A DNA stretch of 35,466 nucleotides from an uncultured Iamiaceae bacterium (GCA_964626395.1 CAZVFF010000001.1:1-35466); one strand, 5' to 3'; positions 498 through 35,466 are shown, counted from the stretch's first letter. Notes: generated from the sequence alone by a model not told the origin. Numbers and translations: made by a program.

Positions 498-739
498 GGG
501 GGTCCTCGGAGGTGTCGGGCCCGGAGGACGAGCGAGACGCCGTCGACCGGGCATCGGATGATGCCTGGTCGAAGGTCTTGCTCGTCCGCCGGCGGGCGGC
601 GGATCCGGGGACCGGGGCGTTCTGGGCCCAGCGTGTCGATCGTCCGGCGTGGAGCTACTCCCCTTCGCCACCGGCGAGCGTAGCCCACGCCGGCTCCGGC
701 CCGGGCCCGTTGGGTCCGGTGCCCACTAGCGTCCGGGGC

Positions 740-6300: not shown

Positions 6301-7202
6301 CCGACGGGAACGTCGGTCCACACGCCCCAGGCGTTCGCCGGGTTGCCGTCGATGCTGATCGTCGACGCCGCGGGTGGGTCGGTGGTGACCCGCAACGTGC
6401 CGTGGGGGGCGAAGGTGCCGACGACCTCGGCGGTCTCCCCTGCGGTGACGGTCACGGTTTCACACGGTGGGGTGCCGTGGCCTTCGACGTCGCCGAAACA
6501 CACCTCGTGGTCTCCGGGGGTGGTCTCCAACCAGTCCAGGCCCCAGGTGTCGGCGTCGTGGCCGTCCAGGACGATCCGGGCGGGCACGGGCGGGGCGGTG
6601 GTCACCCGCAGCAGTCCCACGTCGGTCGCCCCCGGGGCGCCCGGGTTCGGCGTGTAGTCGCCGGTGAGGTGCGCGGTGGCAGCGACGGGGACGGTGACGG
6701 TTGCACACGGCGGCGGGTCGTGGTCGGCGACCGGTCCGAAACACACCTCGTGGGTGCCGGCGGGCCGGTCGGTCGAGGCCGCCCAGTTGTCCACGGGGTG
6801 CCCGTCGACGGTGATGCGGGCCGCGACGGGCGGGTCGGTGGTCACCCGCAGGTGCCCACCGGGGGTGAACATCCCGACGGTGGCGGTGGTTTCGCCGGCC
6901 TGGACGGTCACGGTGTCACAGTCGGGGGTGGTGTGCATCGGCACGTCGCCGAAACACACCTCGTGGTCTCCGACCGCGACCTCGACCCAGTCGAGGCCCC
7001 AGGTGTCGCCGATGTTCCCGTCCACGGTGATCCGTGACGGCACGGGCGGCGCGGTGGTGACCCGCAGCAACCCGGTTTCCGTCGGTGCGGGTGCGCCCGA
7101 TGCGGTTGCCGGGGGAACGGCCACGACGGCGACGGTGAGCACGGCCAGGACCGCGGCGATACACGTCACCCCGATGAAGGTCGCCGCCCGCTTGGTTTGC
7201 AC
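3399..7202 (-). CDS. large secreted multidomain protein: signal peptide, 4 PEGA-like Ig-fold repeats, FN3, three right-handed beta-helix-like modules
   Basis: GTG 7202 (AAGGCGGA upstream) begins KRAATFIGVTCIAAVLAVLTVAVVAVPPATA/SG. The upstream 88 codons of track ORF 3399..7466 are Arg/Pro-rich and would run into the divergent ABC gene. Four LRVTT-PP...VDG...G-HEVCFG units are followed by an FN3-like segment (VALEWTDVPGATGHVVEH...VSYRVRA). Then come long Gly/Thr/Val/Asn-rich repeats containing VTGNTF / ITGN motifs. Confidence 0.85.
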   Translation of the reverse strand: MQTKRAATFIGVTCIAAVLAVLTVAVVAVPPATASGAPAPTETGLLRVTTAPPVPSRITVDGNIGDTWGLDWVEVAVGDHEVCFGDVPMHTTPDCDTVTVQAGETTATVGMFTPGGHLRVTTDPPVAARITVDGHPVDNWAASTDRPAGTHEVCFGPVADHDPPPCATVTVPVAATAHLTGDYTPNPGAPGATDVGLLRVTTAPPVPARIVLDGHDADTWGLDWLETTPGDHEVCFGDVEGHGTPPCETVTVTAGETAEVVGTFAPHGTLRVTTDPPAASTISIDGNPANAWGVWTDVPVGDHEVCFGPAPGWEPPPCGTVTVLAGQTTEVTGEPTGGTDPATGPAELHATPGDGVVALEWTDVPGATGHVVEHAADPSGPWTALADTDATTTWLVDDGLTNGTAVSYRVRARHGATPSEPSPVATATPAAGSAPACGTLGADTVWTGTVVLHQCPVTVPDGVTLAIVGDATVAAGNVTVDPGGRLLVASAGDDHPALVDLCDTALPGDPPYGCDQPAPWRPVGTWQIRGTATFHGADVTRSHIGGIAPGVQTIADSRFVDTTLDLRGAVRVTDNTFEGSRTVVADAPAPTVTGNTFIDAVEPDDIDPRQVPALVAQRLGDTARIHGNTTSGDHIQRVVEVTSSQVTGTWTIDPSADAITLVAHLKVVGGGMVVVGAGADLHVGFPGAGEGITVHDTATLLATGTITSVCDTTLVHLVGHYDATYRTLDGCDMTRPYTARPMVTVSDDATALFTGAGVRSIDLYVRQSLGTDPSLSMQHSTVYDTVADFDGTIALVGNTIESSSVRFHATDAVTVTGNTFSDARHVGSDSDPGPAMIVTLVDDVSGITGNRAEGTDIQRVQAVSISGVTGTWNLDAADDMVTHVAGLRVRDGGTLHAGPGALLLLAESELEVANGGTFRATGATVTTVCDTSLVDVTAGMQAGCGPYATKAAIGYSNHSDRSTSRLDIDAALVRGVDLRIHGLTAPEHRRYDVSIASSVVEDADVYVSQPDRLALTGNEFHRSPITVNTVRTVDIDDNTWYDTDLPLRMSDVADVSGFAPTNRTVGTTPTQRTIEVTNAVVGGGWEIAPTDLVETHRLAGVTVPAGTSLTVGAAHLLVDYPIAVHGNATFAGTTMVLKGSIEANGGSTVHVSNATITNQAGTAIRANHGCGLLTPVSSDVTVTGTQFIGGNLAISNCSWDRGNPKPFAVGNTGSVNHSTHLHRCHFPGVPPAIPPDDVYVLKQDVEAGVADQQCPPGYTDQTFLLPH
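3612..5429 (-). repeat. three tandem ~200-220-aa beta-helix-like modules inside the large secreted protein
   Basis: Each module starts at VTGNTF(I/S)DA, VTGNTFSDA or LTGNEFHRS (ORF residues 680, 903, 1103). All share the order ...IQRV-(V/Q)-V(T/S)-S-VTGTW-(T/N)-(I/L)D...TVCDT(T/S)LV... Confidence 0.6.
6189..7073 (-). repeat. duplicated two-domain unit (A-B-A'-B') of PEGA-like repeats, ~72-80 aa each
   Basis: GLLRVTTAPPVPSRITVDG...GDHEVCFGDV / GHLRVTTDPPVAARITVDG...GTHEVCFGPV, then GLLRVTTAPPVPARIVLDG...GDHEVCFGDV / GTLRVTTDPPAASTISIDG...GDHEVCFGPA. Confidence 0.75.
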
Positions 7203-15651: not shown

Positions 15652-15755
15652 AACCGCGTGTCAGGTGCTCAGCGACACGCGCAGACAGATCGTGACGGGA
15701 AGCGGCCGATCGCACCGGCGGACGGCGCGTGTCCGCAATAGGTATCGTTGGAGGC

Positions 15756-15980
15756 ATGTCGCTGCTCGATCGAATCACCGTCGATACCGACGTTGTTCAC
15801 GGTCGCCCGGTGATCCGCGGTACTCGTATGAGGGTTGCCGACGTCTTGTCGTTGCTGGCAGCGGGCGCCGACGAGGCTGAGATCCTCGCCGACTACCCGT
15901 ACCTGACGAGAGACGACATCCGGGCGAGCCTCGCGTTTGCCGCGGCACAGGCCGATCGTGCCGTCGTCATCGCTTCGTGA
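15756..15980 (+). CDS. DUF433-family putative antitoxin
   Basis: MSLLDRITVDTDVVHGRPVIRGTRMRVADVLSLLAAGADEAEILADYPYLTRDDIRASLAFA matches the DUF433 pattern (GxPxIxGTR...DYP-L). GTG 15729 is an alternative start. The stop overlaps the next gene's start (GTGA). Confidence 0.8.
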   Translation: MSLLDRITVDTDVVHGRPVIRGTRMRVADVLSLLAAGADEAEILADYPYLTRDDIRASLAFAAAQADRAVVIAS

Positions 15981-16315
15981 CCGCGACCCGTTTTCTGGTC
16001 GACGCCCAGCTCCCGCCGGTACTCGCCGACATGCTGCGGGCCCGGGGGTACCCAGCAGAACACATCACGGATATCGGTCCAGCCGATGCCACCGATCAAC
16101 AGTTGTGGCAACACGCACTCGAAAACAACGCGGCGATCATCACCAAAGATGAGGATTTCGCGAACATGGTCACCTTGGGCTTGCCCGGACCGACAGTTGT
16201 GTGGGTTCGCGTCGGCAACACACGTCGGGCGGCCCTCATCGACTGGTTCGAACCGCGCATCGACGACCTCGCGACGTTGGTGGGGACCGGTAGGCGCCTC
16301 ATCGAACTCCGTTGA
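15977..16315 (+). CDS. DUF5615-family PIN-like putative toxin
   Basis: RFLVDAQLPPVLADMLRARGY...ATDQQLWQHALENNAAIITKDEDF is typical of the DUF5615 partner of DUF433. Start and stop overlap by 4 nt with the upstream gene. Confidence 0.8.
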   Translation: MTATRFLVDAQLPPVLADMLRARGYPAEHITDIGPADATDQQLWQHALENNAAIITKDEDFANMVTLGLPGPTVVWVRVGNTRRAALIDWFEPRIDDLATLVGTGRRLIELR

Positions 16316-17011: not shown

Positions 17012-18679
17012 GTGGCACAGATCCATCCGGCCGACAGGGAACCCGAACACGATTCGGAACGTCGGGTGCTCGACGCGTTGCGGCGTCTCGGCGACGACTG
17101 GCACGTGTTCCACAACATCAAGTGGCAGGCGTTGCGGCGGGACCGACAGGGTGACGGCGAAACGGACTTCGCGTTGTTCCATCCCCGGGCCGGGATTCTG
17201 GTGATCGAAGCCAAGGGCGGCGAGGTGGCGTTGCGTGACGGCGAGTTCGTGCGGCTGTTGTCGGGCGGACGGGAGAAGGCGATAACGAACCCGTTCGACC
17301 AGGCCGCGGCGTGCAAACGCCAACTCCGGCACTTCCTGGCCGGGTCGGTGCCGGGGTTGGACCGCACCCCACGGGTGGGCCACGCCGTGGCGTTCCCCCA
17401 TGGTCGGGTCACCGACGACCTGGGTCCGCAGGGGCCACGGCAGATCATCATCGACGCGGACGATCTGGACGACATCGTCGGCGCGTTGGAACGCATCTCG
17501 GCGCACTGGGATCCGCCGACCCGGTTGGACGACGACCAGTTGGCAGCGATCCGGGATCTGTTGTTGCCGTCGGTGCGGGTGCGGCGCCTGTTGGCCGACG
17601 CCGTGGCCGACGCGCACGAGTCGATCATCGAGTTGACGGCCGAACAGTTCGACGTGCTCGACGGGTTGTCGGCCAACCGGCAGGCGCTGGTCACCGGCGG
17701 GGCGGGCACGGGCAAAACGGTGTTGGCGGCGGAGAAGGTGCGGCGCCTGGCGGGTCTGGGGGCCGACGCCCGGGTGTTGTTCGTGTGTTTCAACCGGCCG
17801 TTGGGTGACGCGTTGGCGGCCGAGTTCGCCGACGTGGCGAACGTGACCGCCGGCAACTTCCACCGGATCGTGCGCAACATGCTCGCCGACGCCGGGGTGG
17901 CCTTCCCGGAGACGCTGACCCCCGAGTGGTGGGCGCACGACGCGGTGGAACAGTTCCCCGACGCCGCCGCGCAGCAGGGTTTCGAGGTGGATGCGGTGGT
18001 GATCGACGAGGGTCAGGATTTCCGGTCGAACTGGTGGGACGCGTTGCGGCTGGTGATGCGGGACCCCGACGACGGGTGGTTCTACGTGTTCGCCGACGCC
18101 CAGCAGGCGGTGTACGTGGAGGACTGGTCGCCGCCGTTCGACGGTCGGGTCGCCCGGTGGACGTTGACGCGGAACTGTCGGAACACCGATCAGATCGCGG
18201 CGAAGGTGGCGTCGTTGTTCGGTGGTCCGGTGCGCACCCTGGGGGTGGCCGGGCCGGACCCGAAGTTCCACGTGGCGAAGAACCGTGACGTGTTGGCCGA
18301 CCGGTTGGCCGAACGGGTGGCGGCGTTGCTGGCCGACGGGGTGCCGGCGGCCGACATCCAGGTGTTGTCGTCGTCCCGCACCCTGGTCGACGAGTTGGTG
18401 GCGCGGCTGGCCGGTGACCGGCCCGTCGATGGGGACGCCACGGCAGACGGCGGTGACGACGAGAGCGGGGTTGGTGCCGGCAGCGGCGTCGCGGTGGAGA
18501 CGATCCAACGGTTCAAGGGCCTGGAGGCGCCGGTGGTGCTGGTCGTGTTGGCCGACGACCTCGGCGACGAGGATCTGCCGATCGCCTACACCGGGTTCAG
18601 TCGGGCCCGGGCGATGCTCGAGGTGTTCGGCACGCGGGCGACGTTGCGCACGGTGCGTTGGGACGTGGCGGGTTCGTGA
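17012..18679 (+). CDS. NERD-domain nuclease fused to superfamily-1 (UvrD/PcrA-like) helicase
   Basis: GTG 17012 has GAGAGGGAA upstream. NERD-like N-terminus: ERRVLDALRRLGDDWHVFHNIKW...GETDFALFHPRAGILVIEAKGG. Helicase motifs: I GGAGTGKTV, II VVIDEGQDF, III FADAQQ, IV TRNCRNT, V ETIQRFKGLEAPVV, VI YTGFSRAR. Confidence 0.85.
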   Translation: MAQIHPADREPEHDSERRVLDALRRLGDDWHVFHNIKWQALRRDRQGDGETDFALFHPRAGILVIEAKGGEVALRDGEFVRLLSGGREKAITNPFDQAAACKRQLRHFLAGSVPGLDRTPRVGHAVAFPHGRVTDDLGPQGPRQIIIDADDLDDIVGALERISAHWDPPTRLDDDQLAAIRDLLLPSVRVRRLLADAVADAHESIIELTAEQFDVLDGLSANRQALVTGGAGTGKTVLAAEKVRRLAGLGADARVLFVCFNRPLGDALAAEFADVANVTAGNFHRIVRNMLADAGVAFPETLTPEWWAHDAVEQFPDAAAQQGFEVDAVVIDEGQDFRSNWWDALRLVMRDPDDGWFYVFADAQQAVYVEDWSPPFDGRVARWTLTRNCRNTDQIAAKVASLFGGPVRTLGVAGPDPKFHVAKNRDVLADRLAERVAALLADGVPAADIQVLSSSRTLVDELVARLAGDRPVDGDATADGGDDESGVGAGSGVAVETIQRFKGLEAPVVLVVLADDLGDEDLPIAYTGFSRARAMLEVFGTRATLRTVRWDVAGS

Positions 18680-18981: not shown

Positions 18982-19386
18982 TCAGTGGGCGTCGCCGGGG
19001 AGCCGAGCGAGCTGCCTGGACACCAGGTCGGCCACGTCGCAGCTGACCAGCTCTGCGCCGATGCGGTCCGCGGCGGCCACATAGGCGGCGTCGTAGACGC
19101 TTAGGGATGATCCGGCCGCGATCGCGACAGCTTCCGAAAGCAGCGCAGGGTCGCAGCGGACGACTCCCCGATCGTCTGCGATGGCGTCGATGATCGCGAC
19201 GAGCCGGTCGGCGACCTCGGGTGCGTTCCATGCTCGAACCGCCACGTTTGCAACTTCGTAGTACGCGAGGTCCAGAACGGCGAGCGGCTCGATGCCGGTG
19301 AGCAGACCGACGGCTGGGCCGTGGTTCGAGTCGTCGGTGTCGTGGCTGGCGAGGATCACGCTCGCGTCGAGCAGCCACGTCGTCAT
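18982..19386 (-). CDS. vapC: type II toxin VapC (PIN-domain ribonuclease)
   Basis: ATG 19386 inside track ORF 18982..19713. The translation starts MTTWLLDASVIL (first acidic residue). Later acidic residues sit in LAYYEVANV and SVYDAAYVAAA. The start overlaps the antitoxin stop (ATGA). Confidence 0.87.
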   Translation of the reverse strand: MTTWLLDASVILASHDTDDSNHGPAVGLLTGIEPLAVLDLAYYEVANVAVRAWNAPEVADRLVAIIDAIADDRGVVRCDPALLSEAVAIAAGSSLSVYDAAYVAAADRIGAELVSCDVADLVSRQLARLPGDAH

Positions 19387-19616
19387 CGGTGCGGCCGGTG
19401 TTCTTTGACCAGTGTGGCGACGTTCCCGCCGCGGCCGGTGGGTTCCGAGGTGGCCATCAGCGCGGCGATACCTTCGGCGCGCGCCCGGCTGCGCCGCCGC
19501 AAGTGCACTTCGGCGAGTTTGCGGAGATAGCCACTCCGAGTGTCCCCGTCGCGTTGGGCCGCCGCGTCGAGTTCCGCCAGCAGTGCGTCGGGAAGTGACA
19601 CCATGACCTTGGCCAT
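19383..19616 (-). CDS. vapB: type II antitoxin VapB, ribbon-helix-helix (CopG/MetJ-like)
   Basis: MAKVMVSLPDALLAELDAAAQRDGDTRSGYLRKLAE is an RHH signature. ATG 19616 (ATG 19604 is an alternative). The rest of track ORF 19383..20081 is a shadow of the mcrC 3' end. Confidence 0.8.
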   Translation of the reverse strand: MAKVMVSLPDALLAELDAAAQRDGDTRSGYLRKLAEVHLRRRSRARAEGIAALMATSEPTGRGGNVATLVKEHRPHR

Positions 19617-19875
19617 GAACAGAGTATACCCGGTATTGCCGTGTGTGGGCCCGGGGCGCTTCGCAACCGTCATGGCGCACCCATACCCTCCTCTCACAAG
19701 CCTGAAACCCCACGAGAGCGAAGCGAAAGCCCGATCGCGCTCACCCGACGCGGCCGGACGTGCCGGGCCATCGACCTCGCCGAAGGCCCCGGGGTCGGAC
19801 TCGTCGGGACGCACGGATCCACGATCAGCCCGGTCATGGAGACTCCACGAACACTTCGCCATGTGGACGGTCCGT

Positions 19876-21123
19876 TCACGACACCGGCCGCAGCCGTTGG
19901 TCACGTCCCGGACGCACGTAGGCTCGCACCCGGTCGGCGAGGAGTCCCAGCCCGGTGTCGATGTCCTCGATCTTCCCGCGTAGGTCCACCGGCCACAGGT
20001 GCACGTCGGCGCTGCTGCGTCGCACGGTGAGCTGGTCCGGAACGGTCGTCGCCTCGCCAGCGATGCAGGTGATGAGCGCACCGGCCGGTAGCCCGAGGAT
20101 CGTCGCGTAGGTGTGCAGCTGGTTCAGGTCGGCCGTTGCCACGCTGTCCAACGAACCGTGGTTCTTGTATTTCACGTCGGCGACGAACACGGGGCGACCG
20201 GCCCGCCGGAAGACCAGGTCCGGGTACAGGTCCACTCGACCGTCGACGTCGAACTTCTCGTGTGCCTGCTCCTGCACCTCGATGACGTCGTGGAGATGGC
20301 GGCGTAACCGGTCGCCGATGAACGCCTCGACGAGTTTGTTCATGTCGAGAAGGAACGTCCGTCCGGTCCACCCGCCGGCTCGATCCACCGGGCTGGTCTC
20401 GCCGACGATCAGCTTCGCAATCGGGACAACGGCCCGGTAGTGCTCGTCGAGTCGTGTGGGGTTCCAGTCACGCACCGCCTCGATCGTGTCGGGCTCCAGC
20501 GACACCCCTTCGAAACGGCCGAGGTGTCGTCGCAGGGTCACCCGGTCGGGGCTCGGCACCCCGGGTACCCGCAACGACCGATCGGTGGCGGCGAGCAGCA
20601 ACCGGTTGAGCGCGATGTCGGCTGTGTACTCCTCGTACCGGCACGGCACCCACATCCCGGGCCCCGGGCGGGTCGCGAGGCCCGCGAAGTCGAGCCGCCC
20701 CCGGATGGTCCGCAACCGTTCGGCACGGCCCTGGTAGTCACGACGCATCCCTTTGGCCAGCAGGTCATCGAGGCGGTGGCGGAACAGACGCACCAGGGCG
20801 ACGAGCAGGTCGGGCTCGGTGTCAAAATCGAACAGATCATGGCCGATCGTCAATGACCCGACGTCGACGTCCAGCAACGCGAACAGGTTTCGCATCCCGA
20901 TCTTCGGACGGATCGAGAACCGCCACTCCCCGACCGCCACGACCCCGACCATCTGGGATGGACGAAACAGCCATCCCCCACCCGCCGGTCGGACCTCGAT
21001 ACCCCACCCTCGGTTCGCGGCAAGGGTCTCGGCGACCTGCCGCGGCACGTCGACCGGCTCAGCGGTCCAGCGCCATTCGACGAGCTCGACGACCCGATCA
21101 CCACGGTCGTTCGGATGGGTCAC
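19876..21123 (-). CDS. mcrC: McrC-family restriction endonuclease subunit
   Basis: GTG 21123 overlaps the mcrB stop (GTGA). C-terminal PD-(D/E)xK: VDLYPDLVF...VFVADVKYK. Size and position immediately downstream of a McrB-type AAA+ GTPase fit. Confidence 0.85.
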   Translation of the reverse strand: MTHPNDRGDRVVELVEWRWTAEPVDVPRQVAETLAANRGWGIEVRPAGGGWLFRPSQMVGVVAVGEWRFSIRPKIGMRNLFALLDVDVGSLTIGHDLFDFDTEPDLLVALVRLFRHRLDDLLAKGMRRDYQGRAERLRTIRGRLDFAGLATRPGPGMWVPCRYEEYTADIALNRLLLAATDRSLRVPGVPSPDRVTLRRHLGRFEGVSLEPDTIEAVRDWNPTRLDEHYRAVVPIAKLIVGETSPVDRAGGWTGRTFLLDMNKLVEAFIGDRLRRHLHDVIEVQEQAHEKFDVDGRVDLYPDLVFRRAGRPVFVADVKYKNHGSLDSVATADLNQLHTYATILGLPAGALITCIAGEATTVPDQLTVRRSSADVHLWPVDLRGKIEDIDTGLGLLADRVRAYVRPGRDQRLRPVS

Positions 21124-24041
21124 CGAGGTGCATCTCCGGCCGGGAGCGACTCGGCGGCGTCTCCGAGTTCGGCAGCGTCGTCACCGGGCACGAGGGGTAC
21201 GGCATCACCGATGGCGAGCTCGTCGCCTCCCGAGCCGGCCCACATCGCGTCGAAGGAGAACCGCTTCTGCATCTCGGGGTTGCCGAAGAACAGATCCTCG
21301 ATCAGAGGGCGGATCTGCAGGTCCCAGATCTCCCGCAGCATCGTCTCGTCGATCGCGAGTCGCATGAAGTAGCTGGGCCCCAACACGAGATGCCGGCCAC
21401 CCAGCGCGTCGGCAAGGCTGTTGTTGACCCGGTCGACGAAGTCCGGCAACACCTCGAGTTGGCCCTCCTCGTCGACCCACCGTTCCAGGACCCGGGCGAT
21501 GGGGTTGTTGCCCTCCACGTCGGGGGTGAAGTCGATGAAGCGGAACCGGCGACGCATCGCGGCGTCGATCAGTGCGACCGACCGGTCGGCGGTGTTCATC
21601 GTGCCGATGATCCACAGGTTCTCCGGGAGTTCGAACGCCTCCTCGGGTCGGTAGAGCAGGTTGGCCGAGCGGTCGCGGTATTCGAGCAGGAAGAGCAGTT
21701 CACCCAGAACGCGCGGCAGGTTGGCCCGGTTGATCTCGTCGATGATGAGGATGTGCGGTCGCCCCGGTTCGGCGCGGGCGGCCTCGGCCATACGCACGAG
21801 CGGCCCCGGGAACAGCTGGTAGGTGAAGCCGTCGCCGTCACGGTTCGGGACGGGCCGGTAGCCCTCCACGAAGTCCTCGTAGCCGTACGACGGGTGGAAC
21901 TGCACCAACATCCGGTGGCTGTCCTCGGGGGCGATCGCTTTGGCCATCTCCTGGGCGATGTGGGTCTTGCCCGTCCCGGGTGGCCCGTAGAAAATCACCT
22001 GCCTCGTGGTCCGCAACTGGTCGTACCAGGCGAGCAGATCCTCGGGTTCCAGGTACAGCTTCGGGGCGAGCGCGGTGAGGTTCGCGATCGCACCGGTTTC
22101 CGTGTCGACGTCCGCTGCGTCGGTTTCTGCGTCGTCGACGCGTTCCTCCAACAACCAGTAGAGGAAGCGACTCTGGCCCCACAGGTCGCCGGGAAAATGC
22201 GGGTCGAGGAGGCCGCGAAGGATCCGGTTCGATTCGACCTGCCGCCGACCGGGCATGAGCTCCATGTCCGGGACGGGGAGCCCCAGACGCGTCAACATCC
22301 CGGCTTTCCCACTGTCGCCGGTGAACGGATAGACGGGGATGATCTCGTCGGGCCGGGTGACCGCGAGCAGCTTCATCGTCATGGCCTCACCCAGGCCACT
22401 GACGTTCACGGGGTCGTCGTGGTCGACGATCCGGTCGATACGCCGGGCGAGATCGTCATCGCTCCAGAGCAGGTATCGGATCGACTGGATGATCCGCGTC
22501 CATTCCTCGTCGTCGGCTTCGTTGATGACGCGATGCAGGTGCGAGTGCGGACCCGGGTTGCCGTAGCGGGGTGCGATCAGGGCTTTGAGGTGCTGCTTGG
22601 ACAGCGCCCCCAGGACGGCTCTCTGGAACGGCGCCGCGAGAGCTGCGGCTTCGGCTTTGCGGGCGAGGTCGTCCCCACCCGGGTATCCGGTTGCGGCGCG
22701 GAAGGTCCCGACCAGGTCGGTGAGATCGTCGGTATCGCTCGTCTCGGCGGTGGCGGCACCGGCGCTGATCCGCTCGTGGGCGCGGTGGAACGGCTCGGCG
22801 AGTGTCTCGACGGCGGCACGAACTTGGGCACGCAGATCGTCGATGGCGGCGATGGACGACACATCGAGCTCGACGGCGGCATCGGTCCAGTCCCGATCAT
22901 CGGGAACGAACACACCATCGCCGCCGTCCCAGACCTGCTTGTACAGCGACACGCCGTCGGGGAATTCACCTCCGAGTGCCTTTCGGAGCTCCCGGGTGTA
23001 CCCGCCTTTCCCACCGACGTGGTACGTGTGCACCGCGACCGTCACGCGTTCCCGATCGACACGGAACCGAACCGGCGGGTGGGTCTGGGGGTCCTCGACG
23101 AACTGCCAGCGGACGTACTGGTCGTTCCGGGCGGTCACCTTCTCCGGTGAATTCACCCAGTAGGGCGAGACCACTTGCGACCTCATCTCGCCACCGAGCA
23201 CGTCTTCCACCACCGGTCGGAGCTGCTCACCGACGCGCTCGACGTCGAGGAGCATCTGTTCGGCGTTGCGGAGACGTGCCGTCCACGCCGTGTGTGCCGC
23301 GACGTCATCCGGTGAGGGTTCCGATGACGGGATCGTCGTCACCCACGCGTTCCGTTCGATGATGGTCGGGTCGAGTCCGAGCACGGCCCGGTGTTCCTCG
23401 GTCCCGAACCACGACAGGACGTGCCAGGCGTGCTGCCGGTCGTCGTCGAGTGCCGCGAGGAGGTCGTGGTAGGCGCGGTAATAGTCGCCGGGGTTGTCCT
23501 TGTCGTCGACGAGCCACCCGAACGCGAGCAGACCGTTCTTCGCGTTCGTCCACATGGGTTGCCAGCCCGAGCGGTCCTGGAGCCACCAGAACCAGGACGC
23601 GAAGAACGGCACCCGGCCGATCTGGACACCCGACCCGGTCCGGCGGAGGGCCACCACCCACTCGGCGAACTCCTCGAGTTTCGCGACGGCGTCATCGAGA
23701 TCGGTCGGCACCGTGATCACCCGGCGCAGCGGCCCCTCCGCATCACCAGCCGGGGCGTCCTTCACCATCTGGTTGAGGCTCATCGCCCCGGCGAAGCCGG
23801 AGAAGCCGAACAGTGGCTTGCCGGCCGTCCAGCGCTGGATTGCGTCCCGTAGCCCTTCAGCCGATTCCGCCCCGGCGAGGAACGCCTCGACGGTAGTGAG
23901 GAGCTCGGGGCGTTGCGCTGCGCGGATTCGCTCTTCGTCCTCCACGTCGATCCCACTCCGCTCCCGGAACGTCGGGACCAGTTGCCGTTCGTACCGCTCA
24001 CGGCGGAACTCGATCTCCCGCGGATGCCACGTCTGCCTCAT
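21120..24041 (-). CDS. mcrB: McrB-family AAA+ GTPase with a ~650-aa unassigned N-terminal region
   Basis: Walker A FYGPPGTGKTH (about 21963..21986). ILIIDEINRANLPRVLGELLFLLE and IIGTMNTADRS are typical of the McrB/AAA_5 core in the C-terminal third. I recognise no motif in residues 1-650. Confidence 0.87.
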   Translation of the reverse strand: MRQTWHPREIEFRRERYERQLVPTFRERSGIDVEDEERIRAAQRPELLTTVEAFLAGAESAEGLRDAIQRWTAGKPLFGFSGFAGAMSLNQMVKDAPAGDAEGPLRRVITVPTDLDDAVAKLEEFAEWVVALRRTGSGVQIGRVPFFASWFWWLQDRSGWQPMWTNAKNGLLAFGWLVDDKDNPGDYYRAYHDLLAALDDDRQHAWHVLSWFGTEEHRAVLGLDPTIIERNAWVTTIPSSEPSPDDVAAHTAWTARLRNAEQMLLDVERVGEQLRPVVEDVLGGEMRSQVVSPYWVNSPEKVTARNDQYVRWQFVEDPQTHPPVRFRVDRERVTVAVHTYHVGGKGGYTRELRKALGGEFPDGVSLYKQVWDGGDGVFVPDDRDWTDAAVELDVSSIAAIDDLRAQVRAAVETLAEPFHRAHERISAGAATAETSDTDDLTDLVGTFRAATGYPGGDDLARKAEAAALAAPFQRAVLGALSKQHLKALIAPRYGNPGPHSHLHRVINEADDEEWTRIIQSIRYLLWSDDDLARRIDRIVDHDDPVNVSGLGEAMTMKLLAVTRPDEIIPVYPFTGDSGKAGMLTRLGLPVPDMELMPGRRQVESNRILRGLLDPHFPGDLWGQSRFLYWLLEERVDDAETDAADVDTETGAIANLTALAPKLYLEPEDLLAWYDQLRTTRQVIFYGPPGTGKTHIAQEMAKAIAPEDSHRMLVQFHPSYGYEDFVEGYRPVPNRDGDGFTYQLFPGPLVRMAEAARAEPGRPHILIIDEINRANLPRVLGELLFLLEYRDRSANLLYRPEEAFELPENLWIIGTMNTADRSVALIDAAMRRRFRFIDFTPDVEGNNPIARVLERWVDEEGQLEVLPDFVDRVNNSLADALGGRHLVLGPSYFMRLAIDETMLREIWDLQIRPLIEDLFFGNPEMQKRFSFDAMWAGSGGDELAIGDAVPLVPGDDAAELGDAAESLPAGDAPR

Positions 24042-24186
24042 GGGCCCACGGTTCTACCAGCCGCCACGGACAGGGAGCTCTCGCTCCGCCAAGATCACGG
24101 GATCCGTACATTGAACCGGCGCATCAGCACGGTACCGAGCGAGTGATACACCATCCCGGCTGCGCGATCGGTGGCAGAATTCGGCG

Positions 24187-26310
24187 ATGACGGGCCATCT
24201 GTTCATAACTCGTGGCGACCTGCTGCATCTGCACTGTGATGCGATCTTGATCCCGAGCGGAACCGATGCCATGGGGAGGTACGGACATCTCGTGTCTCCG
24301 TGGCGGGCGATACCGGGGTTGCCGGTCGATGCCACGGACTGTCTCCGCACAGCTCCCACCGACGAGGAGCGTGCGGTGGAAGTGATCGCTGGGTCGGAGT
24401 CGAAACGGGCGGTCTGGGCTGCGCACTCGGGCGACCTGGGAAAGCCGCCCGCGTGGTATGCGGAGCCGTACGAGGCGTTCATCGCCACTGCGGCCGGACG
24501 ATGCACCGTTCCCGGCGAGATGCTCGGCGCCGCACGCCCACTGCTGGGAGTCCCGCTGCTGGGCACCGGTCACGGTGGCAAGAGGCACGAACGTGGACAG
24601 GTGATGGAGGTGGTGATCGGACGGCTCATGGACATCCTCGGCAACGACGCGATACATGCCGACGTCGTCCTGGTCACGAACGACGAGAACTCGTACTGCG
24701 CGGCACAAGCGGCCCGCGCGAATTGGATCCGGGCGAGCAACACCGCCGATGTCCTCTCGGACATCGAACACGAAACGGTCGAACGACTCACTCGTGAGGC
24801 AAAGGCGGGCCGGCTCGTGTTGTTTCTCGGCGCAGGCGTGAGCATTGGCGCCGGCCTGCCGTCGTGGAACAAGCTGTTGACCAACCTCGCCGACAAGACC
24901 GACCTCAGCAGTGCCGAGCGCGCCCAACTCGAGACACTCGACCCTCGTGACGCGGCAGCCGTGATCGAGCGTCGTCTCGAAGGTGGCGAAGCTCCTGAAG
25001 GCGGTGGTCTCCGCGCCGCGATCGAGCAGATCGTCGATCGGGATCCACTCCGGGTTTCCCTGCTCCATCAACTGCTCGCGGCGCTGCCGAGTACCGAGGT
25101 GCTGACGACCAATTACGACCGGCTCTTCGAGCAGGCATGGGAAGACGCCGAGCGCGAGCCAACCGTTGTCCCGAAGGATCTGGGCGAGGAGGGGCCCGCC
25201 GGGACAGGACGGGCAGAGTGGATCGTGAAGTTGCACGGATCGGTCGACGACAAGTCCGGCCGCCCACTCGTCCTTTCGAGAGGTGATTATCTGCGCTTCG
25301 AGACGTCGGGTGCCGCGTTGGCAGGGATCGTCCAGGCCATGTTCCTCATGCGTCACCTGTTGTTCGTCGGGTACTCGTTGTCGGACGACAACCTGCACCG
25401 CATCGTCCACCAGGTGCACGAGACCATCGCCACCGCGGCGTATCCACGGGGGCACATGGGCAAGTTCGGAACCGTGCTGACCGACCAGGAGCCACGGTTG
25501 CAGGACAAGATCTGGGAGGACGAGCTCACGTTCTTGTCGACGCACACCGGCGGCGGCGACACCGATGCGATCCGTCGCGTCGCGATCATCCTCGACGAAC
25601 TCGCTGCCGCGACAGCTCCCCAGGGTCGCTACCTGGAAGATCCTTCGTTCGACGCCATGTTGAACGACGAGGAGATCGCGGTGCGAGAGCACCTGCACGC
25701 CCTGCGGAAGGCTACACACGCCCCTGGGGTCGGGGTTGCGATCCGAACCGCGATCGAAGGGGCCCTGTCGGCATTCGGTCTCGCACGCGATGACCTGTTC
25801 CCCACCACGCGGTACGAATCATTGACAATCGCATCGGGTCGTCACATCGAAATCGGTGTGGTCGAGCACGAGTTCCAGGAGTGGCGCGGCACTCCCCCAG
25901 CATGCTCGTACGGTCGGAAACCGGCAGTCGAGTTCGCAGGGCAAGGCGTCTTCGCCGAGATCGTCATCGTGCGCCTCTGTCAGCAGGCCGGTTGGGACGC
26001 GCTCTGGGCATCGACGTACGGCGGTCTCCGCTACTTCGACCAGCAACCCTTGGCCGACCGATCGAACACCGCAACGGCGCCAGGGCATCTCGACAAGATG
26101 GTCCACCGTATTGCCGAGGCAAAGGACGGGAAGGTCGCCGGTACGTTCGACGTGATCGCGTGGCGCGGTGACGAGTTCCGATTCATCGAGGCGAAACGCT
26201 CGGGCCGCGACCGGGTTCGCGAGACGCAGATCCAGTGGCTCGCCGCGGCACTCGACCTCGGCTTCGACATCGGCGACTTCATGCTCTTCGAATGGCGGCT
26301 GAAGCACTGA
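24187..26310 (+). CDS. three-domain fusion: Macro/SLOG-like N-terminal domain + defence-type SIR2 (SIR2_2) + C-terminal VRR-NUC (PD-(D/E)xK) nuclease
   Basis: aa 1-175: ITRGDLLHLHCDAILIPSG and PLLGVPLLGTGHGG. aa 205-470: LVLFLGAGVSIGAGLPSWNKLL, TTNYD (N309, nt 25111-25113), IVKLHGS (H350, nt 25234-25236), LLFVGYSLSDDN. aa 585-705: FAEIVIVRLCQQAGWDALW...TFDVIAWRGDEFRFIEAKRSGRDRVRETQIQWL (D655, E668-x-K670, Q681). Confidence 0.85.
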   Translation: MTGHLFITRGDLLHLHCDAILIPSGTDAMGRYGHLVSPWRAIPGLPVDATDCLRTAPTDEERAVEVIAGSESKRAVWAAHSGDLGKPPAWYAEPYEAFIATAAGRCTVPGEMLGAARPLLGVPLLGTGHGGKRHERGQVMEVVIGRLMDILGNDAIHADVVLVTNDENSYCAAQAARANWIRASNTADVLSDIEHETVERLTREAKAGRLVLFLGAGVSIGAGLPSWNKLLTNLADKTDLSSAERAQLETLDPRDAAAVIERRLEGGEAPEGGGLRAAIEQIVDRDPLRVSLLHQLLAALPSTEVLTTNYDRLFEQAWEDAEREPTVVPKDLGEEGPAGTGRAEWIVKLHGSVDDKSGRPLVLSRGDYLRFETSGAALAGIVQAMFLMRHLLFVGYSLSDDNLHRIVHQVHETIATAAYPRGHMGKFGTVLTDQEPRLQDKIWEDELTFLSTHTGGGDTDAIRRVAIILDELAAATAPQGRYLEDPSFDAMLNDEEIAVREHLHALRKATHAPGVGVAIRTAIEGALSAFGLARDDLFPTTRYESLTIASGRHIEIGVVEHEFQEWRGTPPACSYGRKPAVEFAGQGVFAEIVIVRLCQQAGWDALWASTYGGLRYFDQQPLADRSNTATAPGHLDKMVHRIAEAKDGKVAGTFDVIAWRGDEFRFIEAKRSGRDRVRETQIQWLAAALDLGFDIGDFMLFEWRLKH

Positions 26311-26361
26311 CACCGACTGTCGGTTCATCGACGAACCCCTCGACAAGCGAATAATGTAAGG

Positions 26362-26733
26362 GTGAAGCGCCCCGGGTTTTGTGGAGGCTGTGGTGTGTCC
26401 CGGGACGCTTCAGACAAGGGCGACATCGTCGGTATCGAAGAGGACTTCGAATTCGTCGGTGGAAAAGATGTCGACGGTTGGGAGCTGTGGCTCACCTGCG
26501 CCGTGGACACATCGATGGGCAAGGTCGCCGCGACCGAGCTCGACATCGCCTACTGCGATTTCGATGGTAGGACCGTCGCCAAGATCAGTGTCGGGCCGAG
26601 CCCCCGTCCGGTGTTCGCGCTCCACCCCAAGGGCGAGAAGCGCCAACGGTTCCTTGCACGCACCAACAATTCAACCGAGGAACTCGAGGGCGAGGAACTT
26701 CTCGACTACAAGGCACGGAGATGGCCGGAGTGA
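26362..26733 (+). CDS. small ORF resembling the C-terminal two-thirds of an AlbA_2/Schlafen-type DNA-binding domain (possibly a 5'-truncated remnant)
   Basis: GDIVGIEEDFEF...DGRTVAKISVGPSPRPVFALHPKGEKRQRFLARTNNSTEELEGEELLDYKARRW follows the AlbA_2 pattern (V-V-PS--PV ... F--R-GNST--L---E). It lacks the N-terminal E-x-K / NT-GG segment. The GTG start is weak and local GC is lower. Confidence 0.45.
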   Translation: MKRPGFCGGCGVSRDASDKGDIVGIEEDFEFVGGKDVDGWELWLTCAVDTSMGKVAATELDIAYCDFDGRTVAKISVGPSPRPVFALHPKGEKRQRFLARTNNSTEELEGEELLDYKARRWPE

Positions 26734-29612: not shown

Positions 29613-31778
29613 TCAGGGATGCAGATCGCGGAGCTCGACACCATCCCGGCTCCAGGCTTGCCAACCATTGACGGAAGTTCCCCCGTTGACTGCTCGTCCC
29701 GCGGCACTCGGACTCGAAAATCGATGGCCATCTTCGAGGATGATGCCGGCGCCATCGACGCGTCCGACGTAGGTGATCCCGTGTACCCGGTATTCGATGG
29801 GTCCATCGGGAACATTCGCGAGCGAACGGTTGAAGGTGCGCCTGGGTCCTCCAGTGGTTGTCCGAGCAGTCCGAGCCGGTCGCGGACGCGGAGCGTGCAC
29901 TGAAGCCGGTGAGGCCGATACTGGTGGTTTCCTGGCCGACGTCGGCGCGGACCGCGACGTAACCAAGGCAGTGCCGCTTGGATACCCATCGGCAGGATCA
30001 GTGCCTCGGGCACCGGTTTCGGAACCAACCCCGGGCTCGTTGCCGGTGTCGAGCAGCTCGCCGAGACGGCCGATCATGCGCGCACGCCGCTGATCGTAGA
30101 ACCTCGAAAAGGATGCGATGTCGTCGGGGAGGTCGTGCATGTCGTTCTCGGCCAGGTATCCCGTTCGCGCACCAGGATCGGGGAATCGGTCACGCGCCCA
30201 GTCCATGGGAAGCATCGCTTGCTTGGAGGTGTTGACCGATCCTCGGAGGAGTTGGAGGTTCCCGAGCCGGTCGAAGACGTCGCGCAGGTCGTCCATCACC
30301 GCCGGATCGACACCGGCTGCACCGAGGGCACGCTTGGTGAAGAGCTTCTTCGGGAAGACGTGGTCGACGTGCAGGTCGTTGCCGATCGCGGCGGCCGGGT
30401 AGAGAAGCGACAGAAGTACGTATGCGCGGCTGTTGCGTGACTTCGTGTCGGCGAGTTGTTCAATGTGTTCTCGGGTGAATACGAGCGATTTGCCCATCTG
30501 CGCAATCGTCCTCTCCAACTCCCGTGCGGGGAAGCCCCCTGTGCCGTGCTCCTGGATCACTGCGCGCATGAGGGTGATCAACTTGTTGAGGTTCGAGCCC
30601 CACATTCCGGGCGCGAGCAGCATCCGAAGCACCCATTGTCGGACGACCTCACGGTCGGCACGGTGGCCAGCGGACGTCACATACGCGTAGTCGAGGCCAC
30701 GGACGTCGAAATAGGTGGCGAGCGGAAAGATGATGCTCGCCGCCGGCAGTGTTCTGGCGGAAAATCCAAACGCGTCGAGTAGGTGCACGGCGTTGCGCAA
30801 CGCTGCTTCGATCCGGTCCCACGATTGGTCGATGAGCGCAACCGACTCGGGAGTGAGCGTCTTCGGCTCGACCGCGACCGACGGGCGGTTCGTCAGCAAC
30901 AACCCGGCTTTGAGCACCCGGTCCTTGGTGAACGAGAAACCTCGCCCTGTCGCATTGAGGTCATCAACGAGGCCGTGGATGGTTTCGCGGGCATCCCGTT
31001 CGGTGAAGCGGGCGGTCGCGACACTCAGCAGCAGATCGGATTTCGACAGGACGGTCCCCCCGCTGTTGACGCGGATGAAGATCTCGAGAACCTTCGTCAG
31101 GTCCGTTTCATCGAGTTCGAAGTAGCTGATGCAGGGAACCTGTGTGATGGCTTCCCACAACGAGTAGAGCGTGTCGTAGGCGGTGGGATGATCGGCGAGG
31201 CCGGCGGCCTGGATCCGTCGGTTGATTTCGCGTCCGCTCTCCATGTGGAACGCGTCGGCAGCCAGGAACCATGCGTGGCCCCGGGCGCGCTGGGCTTCCT
31301 CGTCGGGCAGGAATCGGAACAGGTACTTGACGCCACTCTCGTCGCCCTCTTCGGGATCGTGGGTGAGGTCCAGGTACATGCGGGTGACGGGGTGGGTGTC
31401 ACCGCTCGCGCCTGCCCGTGCTCGCTTCACCGCATAGGAGCCGTTCAGGGCGATGTTCAACGTCGTGAGGCGTTGTTGCCCGTCGAGGATGGCTGTTACC
31501 GGCCGCCCAGCCGGGAACTCGATGACCGGGGAGTGCGAGTTCTTGCGTTCGTGGTAATCGCGCATCACCTCGTAGAACCGGTAGTCGGCCGAATCGTCGG
31601 GGCTGATGCGCCAGAACAGGAACGTGCCGATCGGGTACCGGCGCAACAAACTGTCGAACAGGCTGCACATCTGGGCCGGCGCCCACACGAACTCGCGTTG
31701 GATCGCCGGGATCACGTATTCCTGGTTCTCGATCCGCTGAAGAACCGTCTTGATCGTGAGCGGTGTCTGGTAGGCCAT
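29613..31778 (-). CDS. GmrSD-type (DUF262 + DUF1524 His-Me finger) modification-dependent restriction enzyme with C-terminal RAMA/DUF4357-like module
   Basis: ATG 31778. DUF262: IPAIQREFVWAPAQMCSLFDSLLRRYPIGTFLFW, DGQQRLTT. DUF1524: HVDHVFPKK...LGNLQLLRGSVNTSK. A Pro/Ala/Arg-rich linker leads to the tail GITYVGRVDGAGIILEDGHRFSSPSAAGRAVNGGTSVNGWQAW. Confidence 0.87.
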   Translation of the reverse strand: MAYQTPLTIKTVLQRIENQEYVIPAIQREFVWAPAQMCSLFDSLLRRYPIGTFLFWRISPDDSADYRFYEVMRDYHERKNSHSPVIEFPAGRPVTAILDGQQRLTTLNIALNGSYAVKRARAGASGDTHPVTRMYLDLTHDPEEGDESGVKYLFRFLPDEEAQRARGHAWFLAADAFHMESGREINRRIQAAGLADHPTAYDTLYSLWEAITQVPCISYFELDETDLTKVLEIFIRVNSGGTVLSKSDLLLSVATARFTERDARETIHGLVDDLNATGRGFSFTKDRVLKAGLLLTNRPSVAVEPKTLTPESVALIDQSWDRIEAALRNAVHLLDAFGFSARTLPAASIIFPLATYFDVRGLDYAYVTSAGHRADREVVRQWVLRMLLAPGMWGSNLNKLITLMRAVIQEHGTGGFPARELERTIAQMGKSLVFTREHIEQLADTKSRNSRAYVLLSLLYPAAAIGNDLHVDHVFPKKLFTKRALGAAGVDPAVMDDLRDVFDRLGNLQLLRGSVNTSKQAMLPMDWARDRFPDPGARTGYLAENDMHDLPDDIASFSRFYDQRRARMIGRLGELLDTGNEPGVGSETGARGTDPADGYPSGTALVTSRSAPTSARKPPVSASPASVHAPRPRPARTARTTTGGPRRTFNRSLANVPDGPIEYRVHGITYVGRVDGAGIILEDGHRFSSPSAAGRAVNGGTSVNGWQAWSRDGVELRDLHP

Positions 31779-32010
31779 GTGGAATCCCCCCGAGTGCGGT
31801 GCGCCGTCGATGGTAACGGCAGTCTCGTGGATGACTCGGCGTTCCGGGACCCCCAGTACCGGCACCGACACTCCGTGACCGCGCAAAACCGGGCCGCTCA
31901 CCGTCCGGAGAGGAGCCCGCTTCACTTCCTCGGGCTACTGCCCTCGGCAGTGTCGAGTGTTGCCTGTTCTCGAGGCTCCCGCAACCTGGGCCTCGGTACG
32001 TACAGACAAG

Positions 32011-34827: not shown

Positions 34828-35466
34828 ATGTCCAAAGTCCACGACCTTCTCGATCACGTCCGGCGCGAGATCGCACCGAGCGACGAAACGCTCAGCGCGG
34901 CCCGACAACACAGAGATACCGTCTTGTCTTCGGCACTGTCTTTCGACGGGGCTCTACGCGCCTATCGCTCCGGATCGATCGCGCACGGAACCGCCAACGA
35001 CGACACCGACGCCGACTGCGGAGTCGTGCTGGATCGGCGCAGCTGGTGTTCACTCGGGCCAGATGGCGACGGCGAGGGCCCCGCCGACGTGGTCGAGCAG
35101 GTGCGCTCGAAGGTCCGCGCTGATCTGAACGCAGCCGGCTGGAACGTGGGAACGCGACTGAGCAAGCGCGCGATCACCGTGACGTTCCCTGATGGGCCGA
35201 GTGTGGACCTCATCGTCGGGCTGACCCGCAAGGAGGAATCGGGCATCTGGATCCCGAATCTTGCTGCACGCCGGTGGGATGCGTCTGATCCCGAATGTCA
35301 CACCGAATTGCTCACAGCCGATCCCAAACCATTGCGGGTCACACGGGCGCGCACGATTCGGCTCGCGAAGGCATGGAACAAGCAGTGGACCGAGCCCGGG
35401 ATGTGCAGCTTCAATATCGAAGCATTGGCGCTCGCGGCAGTGGAACCCGGAATGGGAGTGCCGAAC
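34828..35466 (+). CDS. SMODS/CD-NTase-like minimal nucleotidyltransferase, 3' end cut by window edge
   Basis: Absent from the ORF track (no stop in the window). ATG 34828 has GGAGGA 8 nt upstream. Pol-beta NTase triad: YRSGSIAHGT (G49-S50), DTDADCGVVL (D61, D63), SVDLIVG (D127). Then IWIPN...RRWDASDPECH, as in SMODS-type enzymes. Confidence 0.7.
   Translation, partial: MSKVHDLLDHVRREIAPSDETLSAARQHRDTVLSSALSFDGALRAYRSGSIAHGTANDDTDADCGVVLDRRSWCSLGPDGDGEGPADVVEQVRSKVRADLNAAGWNVGTRLSKRAITVTFPDGPSVDLIVGLTRKEESGIWIPNLAARRWDASDPECHTELLTADPKPLRVTRARTIRLAKAWNKQWTEPGMCSFNIEALALAAVEPGMGVPN

Follow-up and report, generated by a model that had tools for sequence, protein, structure and literature searches.

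A Macro–SIR2–nuclease fusion protein in a defence island of an uncultured Iamiaceae bacterium and the bacterial Macro–SIR2 family behind it

A major arm of bacterial immunity is formed by SIR2 enzymes that hydrolyse nicotinamide adenine dinucleotide (NAD+), the SIR2 NADases; every characterised one, to our knowledge, relies on a separate sensor, be it a TIR-fed SLOG domain, HerA, an Argonaute, large helical domains, or KomAB. Here we analyse a gene at 24187..26310 (+) in a 35,466-nucleotide stretch of DNA from an uncultured Iamiaceae bacterium (GCA_964626395.1 CAZVFF010000001.1:1-35466; the whole stretch is called the window, and positions are counted from its first letter). Its 707-residue product resolves into three modules whose ligand-binding or catalytic residues are intact: an N-terminal Macro domain, a defence-type SIR2 domain, and a C-terminal module accepted, on sequence grounds, as a VRR-NUC-type PD-(D/E)xK nuclease with its catalytic residues in place. 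The module matches are far beyond chance level. Together, the Macro and SIR2 domains (~520 residues) constitute a widespread, unnamed bacterial family whose members usually stand alone. New relative to an earlier sequence-only reading are the widespread extent of this family and the recognition that the nuclease is fused to it as a whole gene; the pairing of Macro with SIR2 has already been noted in surveys. We give roughly even chances to the protein being a single-chain effector of the abortive-infection type, in which ADP-ribose-type sensing by the Macro domain would gate the SIR2 NADase and the nuclease would add a DNA-directed activity.

The gene is complete. Its open reading frame (ORF) opens with ATG, and the GC contents of its first, second, and third codon positions (0.69, 0.47, and 0.78) follow the pattern of a real gene, with even composition over the three modules. 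The Macro domain comprises residues 1–190 (24187..24756, +), and the SIR2_2 domain residues ~196–500 with a C-terminal helical tail to residue ~531 (24772..25779, +); the fusion junction at residues ~532–545 (25780..25821, +) leads into the nuclease module at residues ~545–707 (25819..26307, +). The sequence-only reading had put the frame and the motifs at the residues where we find them, with a single slip: GDLL (residues 10–13) and CDAILIPSG (residues 17–25) are separated by the three residues HLH, not by four. The Macro module further carries PLLGVPLLGTGHGG at residues 118–131. The SIR2 module displays LFLGAGVS..GLPSW (residues 211–227), TTNYD with N309, KLHGS with H350, and FVGYSLSD (residues 393–400), and the nuclease displays D655, E668-x-K670, and Q681.

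The central module is a sirtuin of the defence branch, and its active site is intact. Pfam SIR2_2 (PF13289) matches residues 304–428 at E=7.4e-26 (91.4 bits against a 24.5-bit cut-off), and the best PADLOC model is ThsA1 (E=1.2e-28), aligned over its SIR2 half only (model positions 8–214 of 478); PADLOC Aga_SIR2 matches are weak and partial. The NCBIfam equivalogs for Dsr1 and Dsr2 (NF041818 and NF041819) reach 44.6 and 37.9 bits against a 1400-bit cut-off, again over the SIR2 part only. In the Protein Data Bank (PDB), phmmer aligns residues 196–412 with SeThsA (7uxt), KomC (8zsf), BcThsA (6lhx and 8bto), and DSR2 (8k98), with E down to 2e-14, and TTNYD and KLHG coincide there with the catalytic motifs of ThsA and KomC. 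The catalytic Asn, N309 (codon 25111..25113, +), thus aligns with the TTNYD of SeThsA and KomC, and the catalytic His, H350 (codon 25234..25236, +), lies 41 residues further on in a KLHGS that aligns with KLHGD in SeThsA and KFHGD in KomC; both residues are invariant in a 60-member alignment of the Macro–SIR2 family. The Cys tetrad of a Zn ribbon is not visible in the sequence of this SIR2 domain. A full-length AlphaFold 2 (AF2) model (predicted template-modelling score, pTM, 0.79) places the Macro and SIR2 domains in a confident common arrangement, with residues 1–530 mostly above 90 in predicted local distance difference test (pLDDT), and Foldseek with this model returns ThsA (8bto), KomC, and DSR2 on top (E~1e-13). 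The sequence-only reading of a defence-type SIR2 domain with the Asn/His spacing of ThsA therefore holds, and homology predicts NADase activity for it.

The N-terminal module, residues 1–190, is a Macro domain. Searches with the single sequence against Pfam, NCBIfam, PADLOC, and the PDB yielded nothing significant, and phmmer with this domain alone reached macroH2A at best (E=0.15). A profile of 32 family N-domains searched against the PDB matched the macroH2A macrodomain of Capsaspora (7ny6) at E=2.6e-8 over profile positions 4–170, that is, the whole domain. The AF2 model of residues 1–190 (pLDDT 92.6, pTM 0.89) retrieved macrodomain entries almost throughout the Foldseek top 50, at TM-scores of ~0.6–0.7, among them YmdB, macroH2A1.1 and 1.2, nsP3 of VEEV and CHIKV, an Oceanobacillus MacroD, macrodomains 1 and 2 of PARP14, Af1521, and a T. 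brucei macrodomain. The sequence-only reading had left the choice between Macro and SLOG; the 7ny6 profile match and the fold searches settle it for Macro, and SLOG is rejected because both kinds of search give macrodomains only.

Conservation within the family traces the macrodomain ligand site. The conserved positions are H4, F6, G10, D11, C17, D18, P23, W39, P123, G126, G128, G130, G131, D159, Q174, and R177, and conservation is strongest at the Asp of the CDA motif, an adenine-contact position in macrodomains, and in the Gly-rich phosphate loop GTGxGG; D18 and G126, G128, G130, and G131 are kept in ≥90% of the family. Over the segment equivalent to NAAN...GGGVD of MacroD, the family consensus reads DA[IW]L.P[ST][GD]...G..V..W, and in a manual motif alignment, made without structure superposition, the position of the first Asn of NAAN is occupied by I, L, or V. 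Because in that register this Asn is replaced by a hydrophobic residue, a binding or sensor module is favoured over a hydrolase; the best sequence match of the domain, macroH2A, is a binding-only macrodomain.

The C-terminal module belongs to a large family of small proteins. A word-indexed homology search with the nuclease segment found no matches; an exhaustive phmmer scan of 1.84 billion cluster representatives with the C-terminal 178 residues found 756 at E≤1e-3 and 360 at E≤1e-10. The relatives are mostly standalone proteins of 170–190 residues (~175), and a few are fusions of 300–400 residues; none of the top 150 matches, which were inspected, is long enough to include a SIR2 domain. The conserved columns correspond to K578, E591, D655, E668, K670, and Q681 of the full protein, and across 50 family members D655 (26149-26151), E668 (26188-26190), and K670 (26194-26196), which make up the catalytic block at 26149..26196 (+), are invariant or near-invariant, as is Q681. 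The protein itself scores 20.4–23.0 bits with Pfam VRR_NUC (PF08774), just under the 23.8-bit cut-off; 18 of the 50 family members match that model (E<0.01), and the family member P0123 exceeds the cut-off at 30.8 bits. In PDB profile searches, the D...ExK...Q block aligns with FAN1, and in one search with NucS, below significance in each case. The VRR-NUC assignment, in which we concur with the sequence-only reading and its choice of D655, E668, K670, and Q681, is thus founded on the family-level Pfam matches and the conserved catalytic D...ExK...Q block. It describes a divergent VRR-NUC branch with a conserved N-terminal extension of ~45 residues (including W566 and K578). No phage homologues of the nuclease were found when sought, and for the contexts of its standalone relatives a viral scan yielded none and a metagenome scan three short contigs. 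Two contexts were informative: an integrative element with integrase, Prim-Pol, and PolA genes, and a position beside Fic and methyltransferase genes. The closest relatives of the module, P0122 and P0123 (52–53% identity), bear a second C-terminal domain of ~240 residues, which in P0122 contains a D...E-x-K-like motif; P0123 (L094 3685-4812) is encoded inside the integrative element, with an integrase, a Prim-Pol/AAA_25 protein, and a family A DNA polymerase.

A full-length search returned 245 clusters, and the best 120 are all confined to query residues 1 to ~531; these homologues typically have 505–545 residues, and any name they carry goes no further than 'SIR2 family protein'. When one genome per species was scanned, 246 Macro–SIR2 relatives came up, of which the best 80 come from Actinomycetota, Myxococcota, Planctomycetota, Chloroflexota, Acidobacteriota, and other phyla, in a patchy distribution at 30–47% identity, and none of these 80 reaches into the nuclease. 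Macro–SIR2 homologues stop at query residues 532–542 and standalone nucleases start at residues 530–536; the ends and starts abut, from which it follows that two complete genes have been joined here end to end without a linker. The junction is marked by neither a stop codon nor a break in composition (GC 0.64–0.66 and GC3 0.77–0.79 across it). In a Rosetta-stone test, a hidden Markov model of the nuclease family run against six-frame translations of 83 Macro–SIR2 loci matched the window alone. When other architectures were sought with the Macro profile, eight Macro–SIR2 fragments came up, mostly truncated or frameshifted, and no alternative effector fusions. A phage origin of the core was considered and rejected, phage and plasmid matches being at the level of the SIR2 domain only.

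The sequence-only reading had taken this architecture for a candidate undescribed one, which applies to a part of it. No PADLOC or NCBIfam model covers the Macro–SIR2–nuclease architecture, and the nuclease fusion is found only here; the Macro–SIR2 core, by contrast, is widespread, and the combination of SIR2_2 with Macro appears in two surveys. One of them mentions, in a clade of eukaryotes, SIR2_2 ('SIRim')–Macro fusions suggested to mirror Thoeris (bioRxiv 10.1101/2024.09.18.613514); in the other, SIR2_2–Macro is among the labels of a SIR2_2 tree (PMC12700824). These fusions have the same domain pairing and are survey observations, none of them with a nuclease, and the bacterial family parallels the eukaryotic proteins. 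'Macro-SIR2' as a term was not met in the literature searched.

The protein does not belong to Thoeris type I or II, DSR1/2, SIR2-HerA, or SPARSA; the feature common to it and these systems is the use of a SIR2_2 domain, here a predicted NADase, only. Two kinds of ThsA effector are known, SIR2-SLOG and transmembrane (TM)-Macro, and the Macro domain of type II ThsA binds ADP-ribose (ADPR) or His-ADPR (PMC11204291; bioRxiv 10.64898/2025.12.03.692087). Like type I ThsA, its best PADLOC and Foldseek match, the protein fuses a predicted nucleotide-binding, sensor-like domain to a SIR2_2 domain of the NADase type, in which the catalytic Asn and His are spaced as in ThsA. The sensor-like domain is, however, Macro and N-terminal, whereas the SLOG domain of ThsA, which binds cADPR isomers, is C-terminal (Pfam finds no SLOG match here); the TIR gene ThsB is absent from the window and not recurrent beside homologues, and the C-terminal nuclease is extra. 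With the His-ADPR-activated ThsA of type II, it has in common a Macro domain, here the putative ADP-ribose-ligand module of a candidate immune effector; it differs in that its output is SIR2 plus nuclease rather than TM helices, in that Macro starts the protein, and in the absence of a TIR partner, and the macrodomains of ThsA are not among the top 50 Foldseek matches of its own. DSR1 and DSR2 have a homologous SIR2 NADase and, as standalone genes, deplete NAD+ on direct sensing of phage components, but their sensors are helical regions of ~1000 residues where this protein has Macro, and their equivalog scores lie far under the cut-off. KomC of Kongming, likewise with a homologous SIR2 domain, requires KomA and KomB. 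The HerA partner gene of SIR2-HerA and the short Argonaute/APAZ partner gene of SPARSA are not in the window.

Three further comparisons concern ADP-ribosylation and the nuclease. SirTM operons and DarT–DarG also pair an NAD-using enzyme with a Macro domain (PMC12700824; PMC9503650), but SirTM is a protein ADP-ribosyltransferase of another sirtuin class whose Macro partner is a separate eraser gene, while here SIR2_2 and Macro are fused; DarT has the fold of an ADP-ribosyltransferase (ART), in contrast to the SIR2_2 domain here. ARG-centric systems, predicted to counter phage ADP-ribosylation, are built around an ADP-ribosylglycohydrolase (ARG) gene with an R-P phosphatase and a Nudix/WYL regulator close by, and combine these with variable modules including Macro and restriction-endonuclease-fold domains (Iyer et al., 2022, PMC9503650, section 3.8). 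A subset of Macro–SIR2 genes adjoin or are fused to modules of these systems, namely ADP-ribosylglycohydrolase (ARH), R-P phosphatase, a Nudix-HTH (helix–turn–helix) regulator, TY-Chap, and ARPP, of which the ARPP and TY-Chap families were defined in PMC9503650. The window, by contrast, is without ARH, phosphatase, Nudix, and TY-Chap, and the published systems are defined by having no coupled sirtuin or ART (PMC9503650). As for VRR-NUC nucleases (PF08774), the likeness lies in the D...E-x-K...Q block, the family-level Pfam match, and the weak, sub-significant FAN1 alignment, and the difference in the divergence of this branch, whose own score here falls short of the Pfam cut-off and for which no phage homologues were found.

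Neighbouring genes were clustered over the 83 Macro–SIR2 loci, and the 124 nearest genes (two per side at 31 loci) were annotated in batch. The clustering revealed no universal partner. ARH lies beside 9 of the 83 loci, Nudix/NrtR-like proteins beside 7, a large helicase beside 6, and a ~1300-residue Ser/Thr-kinase/AAA_16 (STAND-like) protein beside 9; among the 124 neighbours, ARH, ARPP-1, TY-Chap, rhodanese, and DSPc occur in small counts with no dominant partner. TIR is not among the families matched by at least two of these 124 genes, nor was a TIR gene found within ±8 kb of the homologue in six annotated loci. Where close relatives were annotated, their genes are lone amid variable genes: one locus (L001) has a DUF6361-helicase system with an adjacent ARH gene, another (L003) AIPR, methylase, and Vsr genes, a third (L084) a NaeI restriction–modification system with Vsr and integrase genes, and a fourth (L085) transposases and Fic. 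The recurring minority theme of ARH, Nudix, and phosphatase neighbours matches the predicted ARG-centric systems.

Several individual loci merit description. In Polyangium and one planctomycete metagenome-assembled genome, the ~1300-residue protein precedes Macro–SIR2 (L015 6048-10004, L016 6120-10004, L023 6108-10004, L080 5946-10004, and also L042 6518-9964). It is Ser/Thr-kinase-like with a P-loop, Pkinase and AAA_16 are among the families of the neighbours, and 'STAND-like' is our own reading; in Polyangium its gene overlaps the Macro–SIR2 gene by 4 bp (translational coupling), and it may be a clade-specific sensor partner. A 1184-residue protein, P0046 (L003 8001-11555), carries the Macro–SIR2 core followed by a DSP-type phosphatase (PTP-SAK) and, last, an ADP-ribosylglycohydrolase, four modules centred on ADP-ribose, and adjoins the AIPR, DNA methylase, and Vsr genes. 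The PTP-SAK family of Pfam is reportedly defined in work by Burroughs and Aravind from 2023, where a prior description of the Macro–SIR2 family is possible. In Actinomarinicola tropica (L002 9637-15992), Macro–SIR2 is followed by TY-Chap3, His_Phos_1, HNH_2, AAA_28, a nicotinamide mononucleotide (NMN) transporter, a Nudix-NrtR regulator, and ARH+PTP-SAK, an assembly reminiscent of the predicted ARG-centric systems with NAD salvage added. Finally, at L086 4871-7490, a SMODS (CD-NTase-like) gene lies directly upstream of a Macro–SIR2 gene that is frameshifted near 6627-6723, and a Cap17-like_N gene is nearby; this adjacency is alone among 86 loci. A link to CBASS was pursued and set aside as island co-location, phmmer with both SMODS proteins having found no further cases.

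On the abortive-infection reading introduced above, the Macro domain would act as a regulatory sensor and not as a hydrolase, binding an ADP-ribose-containing ligand, whether a free derivative of ADPR or a macromolecule bearing ADP-ribose, that arises during infection. Ligand binding would switch on the SIR2 domain, probably by oligomerisation as in ThsA, KomC, and DSR2; the activated SIR2 would hydrolyse NAD+ and the infected cell would be arrested; and the fused VRR-NUC-type nuclease would subject a DNA-directed activity to this control too, be it cleavage or recognition of branched or phage DNA. The grounds for this reading are the Macro fold and profile with conservation of the ligand site, the ThsA/KomC/DSR2-like SIR2 domain with invariant N309 and H350, the precedent of Macro sensing in type II ThsA, the joint arrangement of the two domains in the AF2 model, the conserved nuclease residues, and the setting of the gene in a defence island, with close relatives amid restriction–modification, AIPR, integrase, transposase, and Fic genes. 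The island contains a NERD-helicase, PIN toxins, McrBC, GmrSD/HEC-05, an AbiL-like AAA_21 protein, and a CBASS cyclase.

A number of observations weigh against it. No signal-producing enzyme is linked to the family: no TIR gene is in the window, none recurs among the 124 neighbours, and SMODS occurs in one locus. The neighbours of distant homologues are often housekeeping genes (singletons), and their PADLOC matches are to generic kinases only, so that an enrichment of the wider Macro–SIR2 family in defence islands, which the sequence-only reading had proposed to check, was looked for and not demonstrated. An ADP-ribosylation writer/eraser logic would account at least equally well for the ARH, Nudix, and phosphatase genes that recur as neighbours or fusion partners. 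The AlphaFold check that the same reading had proposed came out confident for Macro and SIR2 but gave pLDDT <50 over residues 559–707, hence no confident three-dimensional nuclease model; the lack of alignment depth in this region makes the prediction unreliable there. The nuclease fusion is a singleton in the databases searched (one cluster, one contig), and no biochemical study of the bacterial Macro–SIR2 family was found in the literature searched. The truncated NTase that had earlier been suggested as a signal synthase makes an unlikely partner, since opposite-strand defence genes intervene over the 8.5 kb between the two and SMODS is not recurrent beside homologues.

With 83 loci and no linked signal synthase, the Macro–SIR2 family raises the question of which ADP-ribose-type ligand it reads, and made by whom. 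One answer, which we would advance only tentatively and consider rather doubtful as a whole, is that each family member is by itself, and independently of TIR, an immune sensor set to guard the cell against ADP-ribosylation chemistry: the Macro domain would detect ADP-ribosylated host macromolecules or free ADPR produced by phage ADP-ribosyltransferases or other NADase systems, SIR2 would remove NAD+, the substrate of those phage enzymes, and the protein described here would be the first case also to drive a DNA nuclease. If the ligand does come from phage ADP-ribosyltransferases, the host would have in this family a direct sensor for a phage strategy known for a long time, and the family would be tied to the predicted ARG-centric systems. 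The unique nuclease fusion, for its part, is a natural experiment in the coupling of two effector activities.

The alternative that survives best, with a minor but real chance of being correct, is that the chain is a writer/eraser pair, in which SIR2 would ADP-ribosylate a protein or nucleic acid, Macro would reverse this in cis, and VRR-NUC would tether the protein to DNA, NAD+ depletion not being the point. SIR2 would then act like the SirTM sirtuins or DarT, and Macro like the SirTM-linked macrodomain or DarG. For sirtuins linked to Macro, ADP-ribosylation of proteins is indeed known (PMC12700824; PMC9503650), ARH adjoins nine homologue loci, P0046 is fused to both a DSP-phosphatase and ARH, and the recurrent Nudix/NrtR-type regulators, TY-Chap, ARPP-1, and rhodanese/DSP phosphatases are all modules of ARG-centric systems (PMC9503650, section 3.8). 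The SIR2 domain here, however, sits in the SIR2_2 NADase branch with ThsA, DSR, and KomC rather than with SirTM or canonical SIR2. The Macro domain, whose best match is macroH2A, is without the catalytic Asn/Asp positions of the MacroD type in the manual motif comparison, and the ARH linkage is that of a minority of loci (9/83), with none in the window. An eraser always present in cis would, moreover, render the writer futile.

A second alternative, improbable in our estimate, inverts the roles of the modules: VRR-NUC would be a sensor or targeting element for branched or replicating phage DNA that localises or activates SIR2, with DNA recognition as in VRR-NUC and Holliday-junction-resolvase-type nucleases, and Macro would provide feedback from the product, ADPR. 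VRR-NUC members such as FAN1, with which the alignment here is weak, are structure-specific nucleases, and the standalone relatives of ~175 residues are tolerated by their hosts, which speaks for a structure-specific rather than indiscriminate activity. That the 83 loci are without a gene of this nuclease family and the top Macro–SIR2 family members without the module indicates in addition that the core works alone. Against this stand the catalytic residues, all of them kept and none needed in a pure binding module, and the singleton fusion, which lends no comparative support.

Could the three-module protein not be a functional unit at all? A sequencing or assembly artefact, or a very recent read-through fusion of two adjacent genes, created by loss of a stop codon and intergenic spacer and under no selection for a joint function, would account for an architecture seen in one cluster and one contig, with no other fusion in the 1.84 billion representatives (among the top 150 matches inspected), no nuclease-family gene beside any of the 83 loci, and two families that abut without a linker. 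We regard it as very unlikely, given that the frame is open through the junction, that composition and GC3 are uniform, that no conserved catalytic or ligand residue has been lost from either half, and that an exact in-frame join of two complete genes is an improbable random error. Least probable of all is a housekeeping enzyme of NAD+/ADP-ribose metabolism or regulation with no immune role, for which one may cite the neighbours of distant homologues (ALAD, ribosomal protein L13, peptidases, and transporters among them) and the A. tropica gene near an NMN transporter, an AAA_28 gene, and an NrtR-type regulator, but against which speak the low-GC defence island around the window copy, the close relatives amid restriction–modification, Abi, and mobile-element genes, the patchy phyletic spread at 30–47% identity, the defence branch of the SIR2 domain, and the canonical CobB-type sirtuin that the window already has.

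The window divides into two parts. Its left half is housekeeping in content, with a GC content of ~70–72%, and encodes a CobB-type SIR2 protein, an ABC ATPase, BNR, MBL, ankyrin, and AAA_33 proteins, a mycothiol-type MDMPI, and a CBS protein; the first of these, a canonical Sir2/CobB-type sirtuin at 512-1501 (+) (Pfam SIR2, E=6e-37), is unrelated to the SIR2_2 domain of the fusion protein. Defence-type genes begin at ~15.7 kb, and GC content falls to ~63% past 24 kb (~0.70–0.72 over 1–15 kb versus ~0.62–0.65 over 24–35 kb), a fall from ~24000 onward that is consistent with horizontally acquired island DNA. The order of the island is DUF433/DUF5615, PIN, NERD-UvrD, McrC, McrB-like, the Macro–SIR2–nuclease gene, GmrSD/HEC-05, an HTH protein, an AbiL/AAA_21 ATPase, and CD-NTase. 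The scanned ORFs of the window agree with the sequence-only reading in including no TIR, HerA, or Argonaute gene, and they include no ARH, Nudix, phosphatase, or TY-Chap gene either; a search for tRNA genes across the window likewise found none.

At the left edge of the island, a toxin–antitoxin-type pair of DUF433 and DUF5615 (PIN-like) proteins occupies 15729-16315 (+), and a PIN-domain protein 18982-19713 (−). A NERD and UvrD-like helicase at 17012-18679 (+) matches the PADLOC model 'RTasNERD-Hel (DRT)' at E=7e-62, and no reverse transcriptase gene was seen near it. The McrBC-type system at 19876-24041 (−) consists of McrC (415 residues) overlapping a McrB-like protein of 973 residues, whose AAA_5 domain spans residues 681–832; its ~660 N-terminal residues have no family match and are perhaps an unusual DNA-recognition region. 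The McrB-like gene is transcribed divergently from the Macro–SIR2–nuclease gene, and the 145 bp between them (24042..24186) are, from the ORF coordinates and the sequence, a presumed promoter region, in which a sigma-70 consensus upstream of the latter gene was looked for and not found.

To the right, a GmrSD-type type IV restriction enzyme that carries an additional RAMA/DUF4357 domain at its C-terminus lies at 29613-31925 (−; PADLOC HEC-05, E=9e-186), and a CD-NTase, or CBASS oligonucleotide cyclase, at 34828-35466 (+; PADLOC Cyclase, E=1e-82; Pfam SMODS weak) is cut by the window end, past which its CBASS effector presumably lies. Immediately downstream of the Macro–SIR2–nuclease gene, 52 bp past its stop codon, a 123-residue ORF without family match (26362-26733, +) is preceded by a promoter-like site at 26328-26355 and a weak terminator-like hairpin at 26360-26372; this ORF may be what remains of a gene, or else a small accessory gene.

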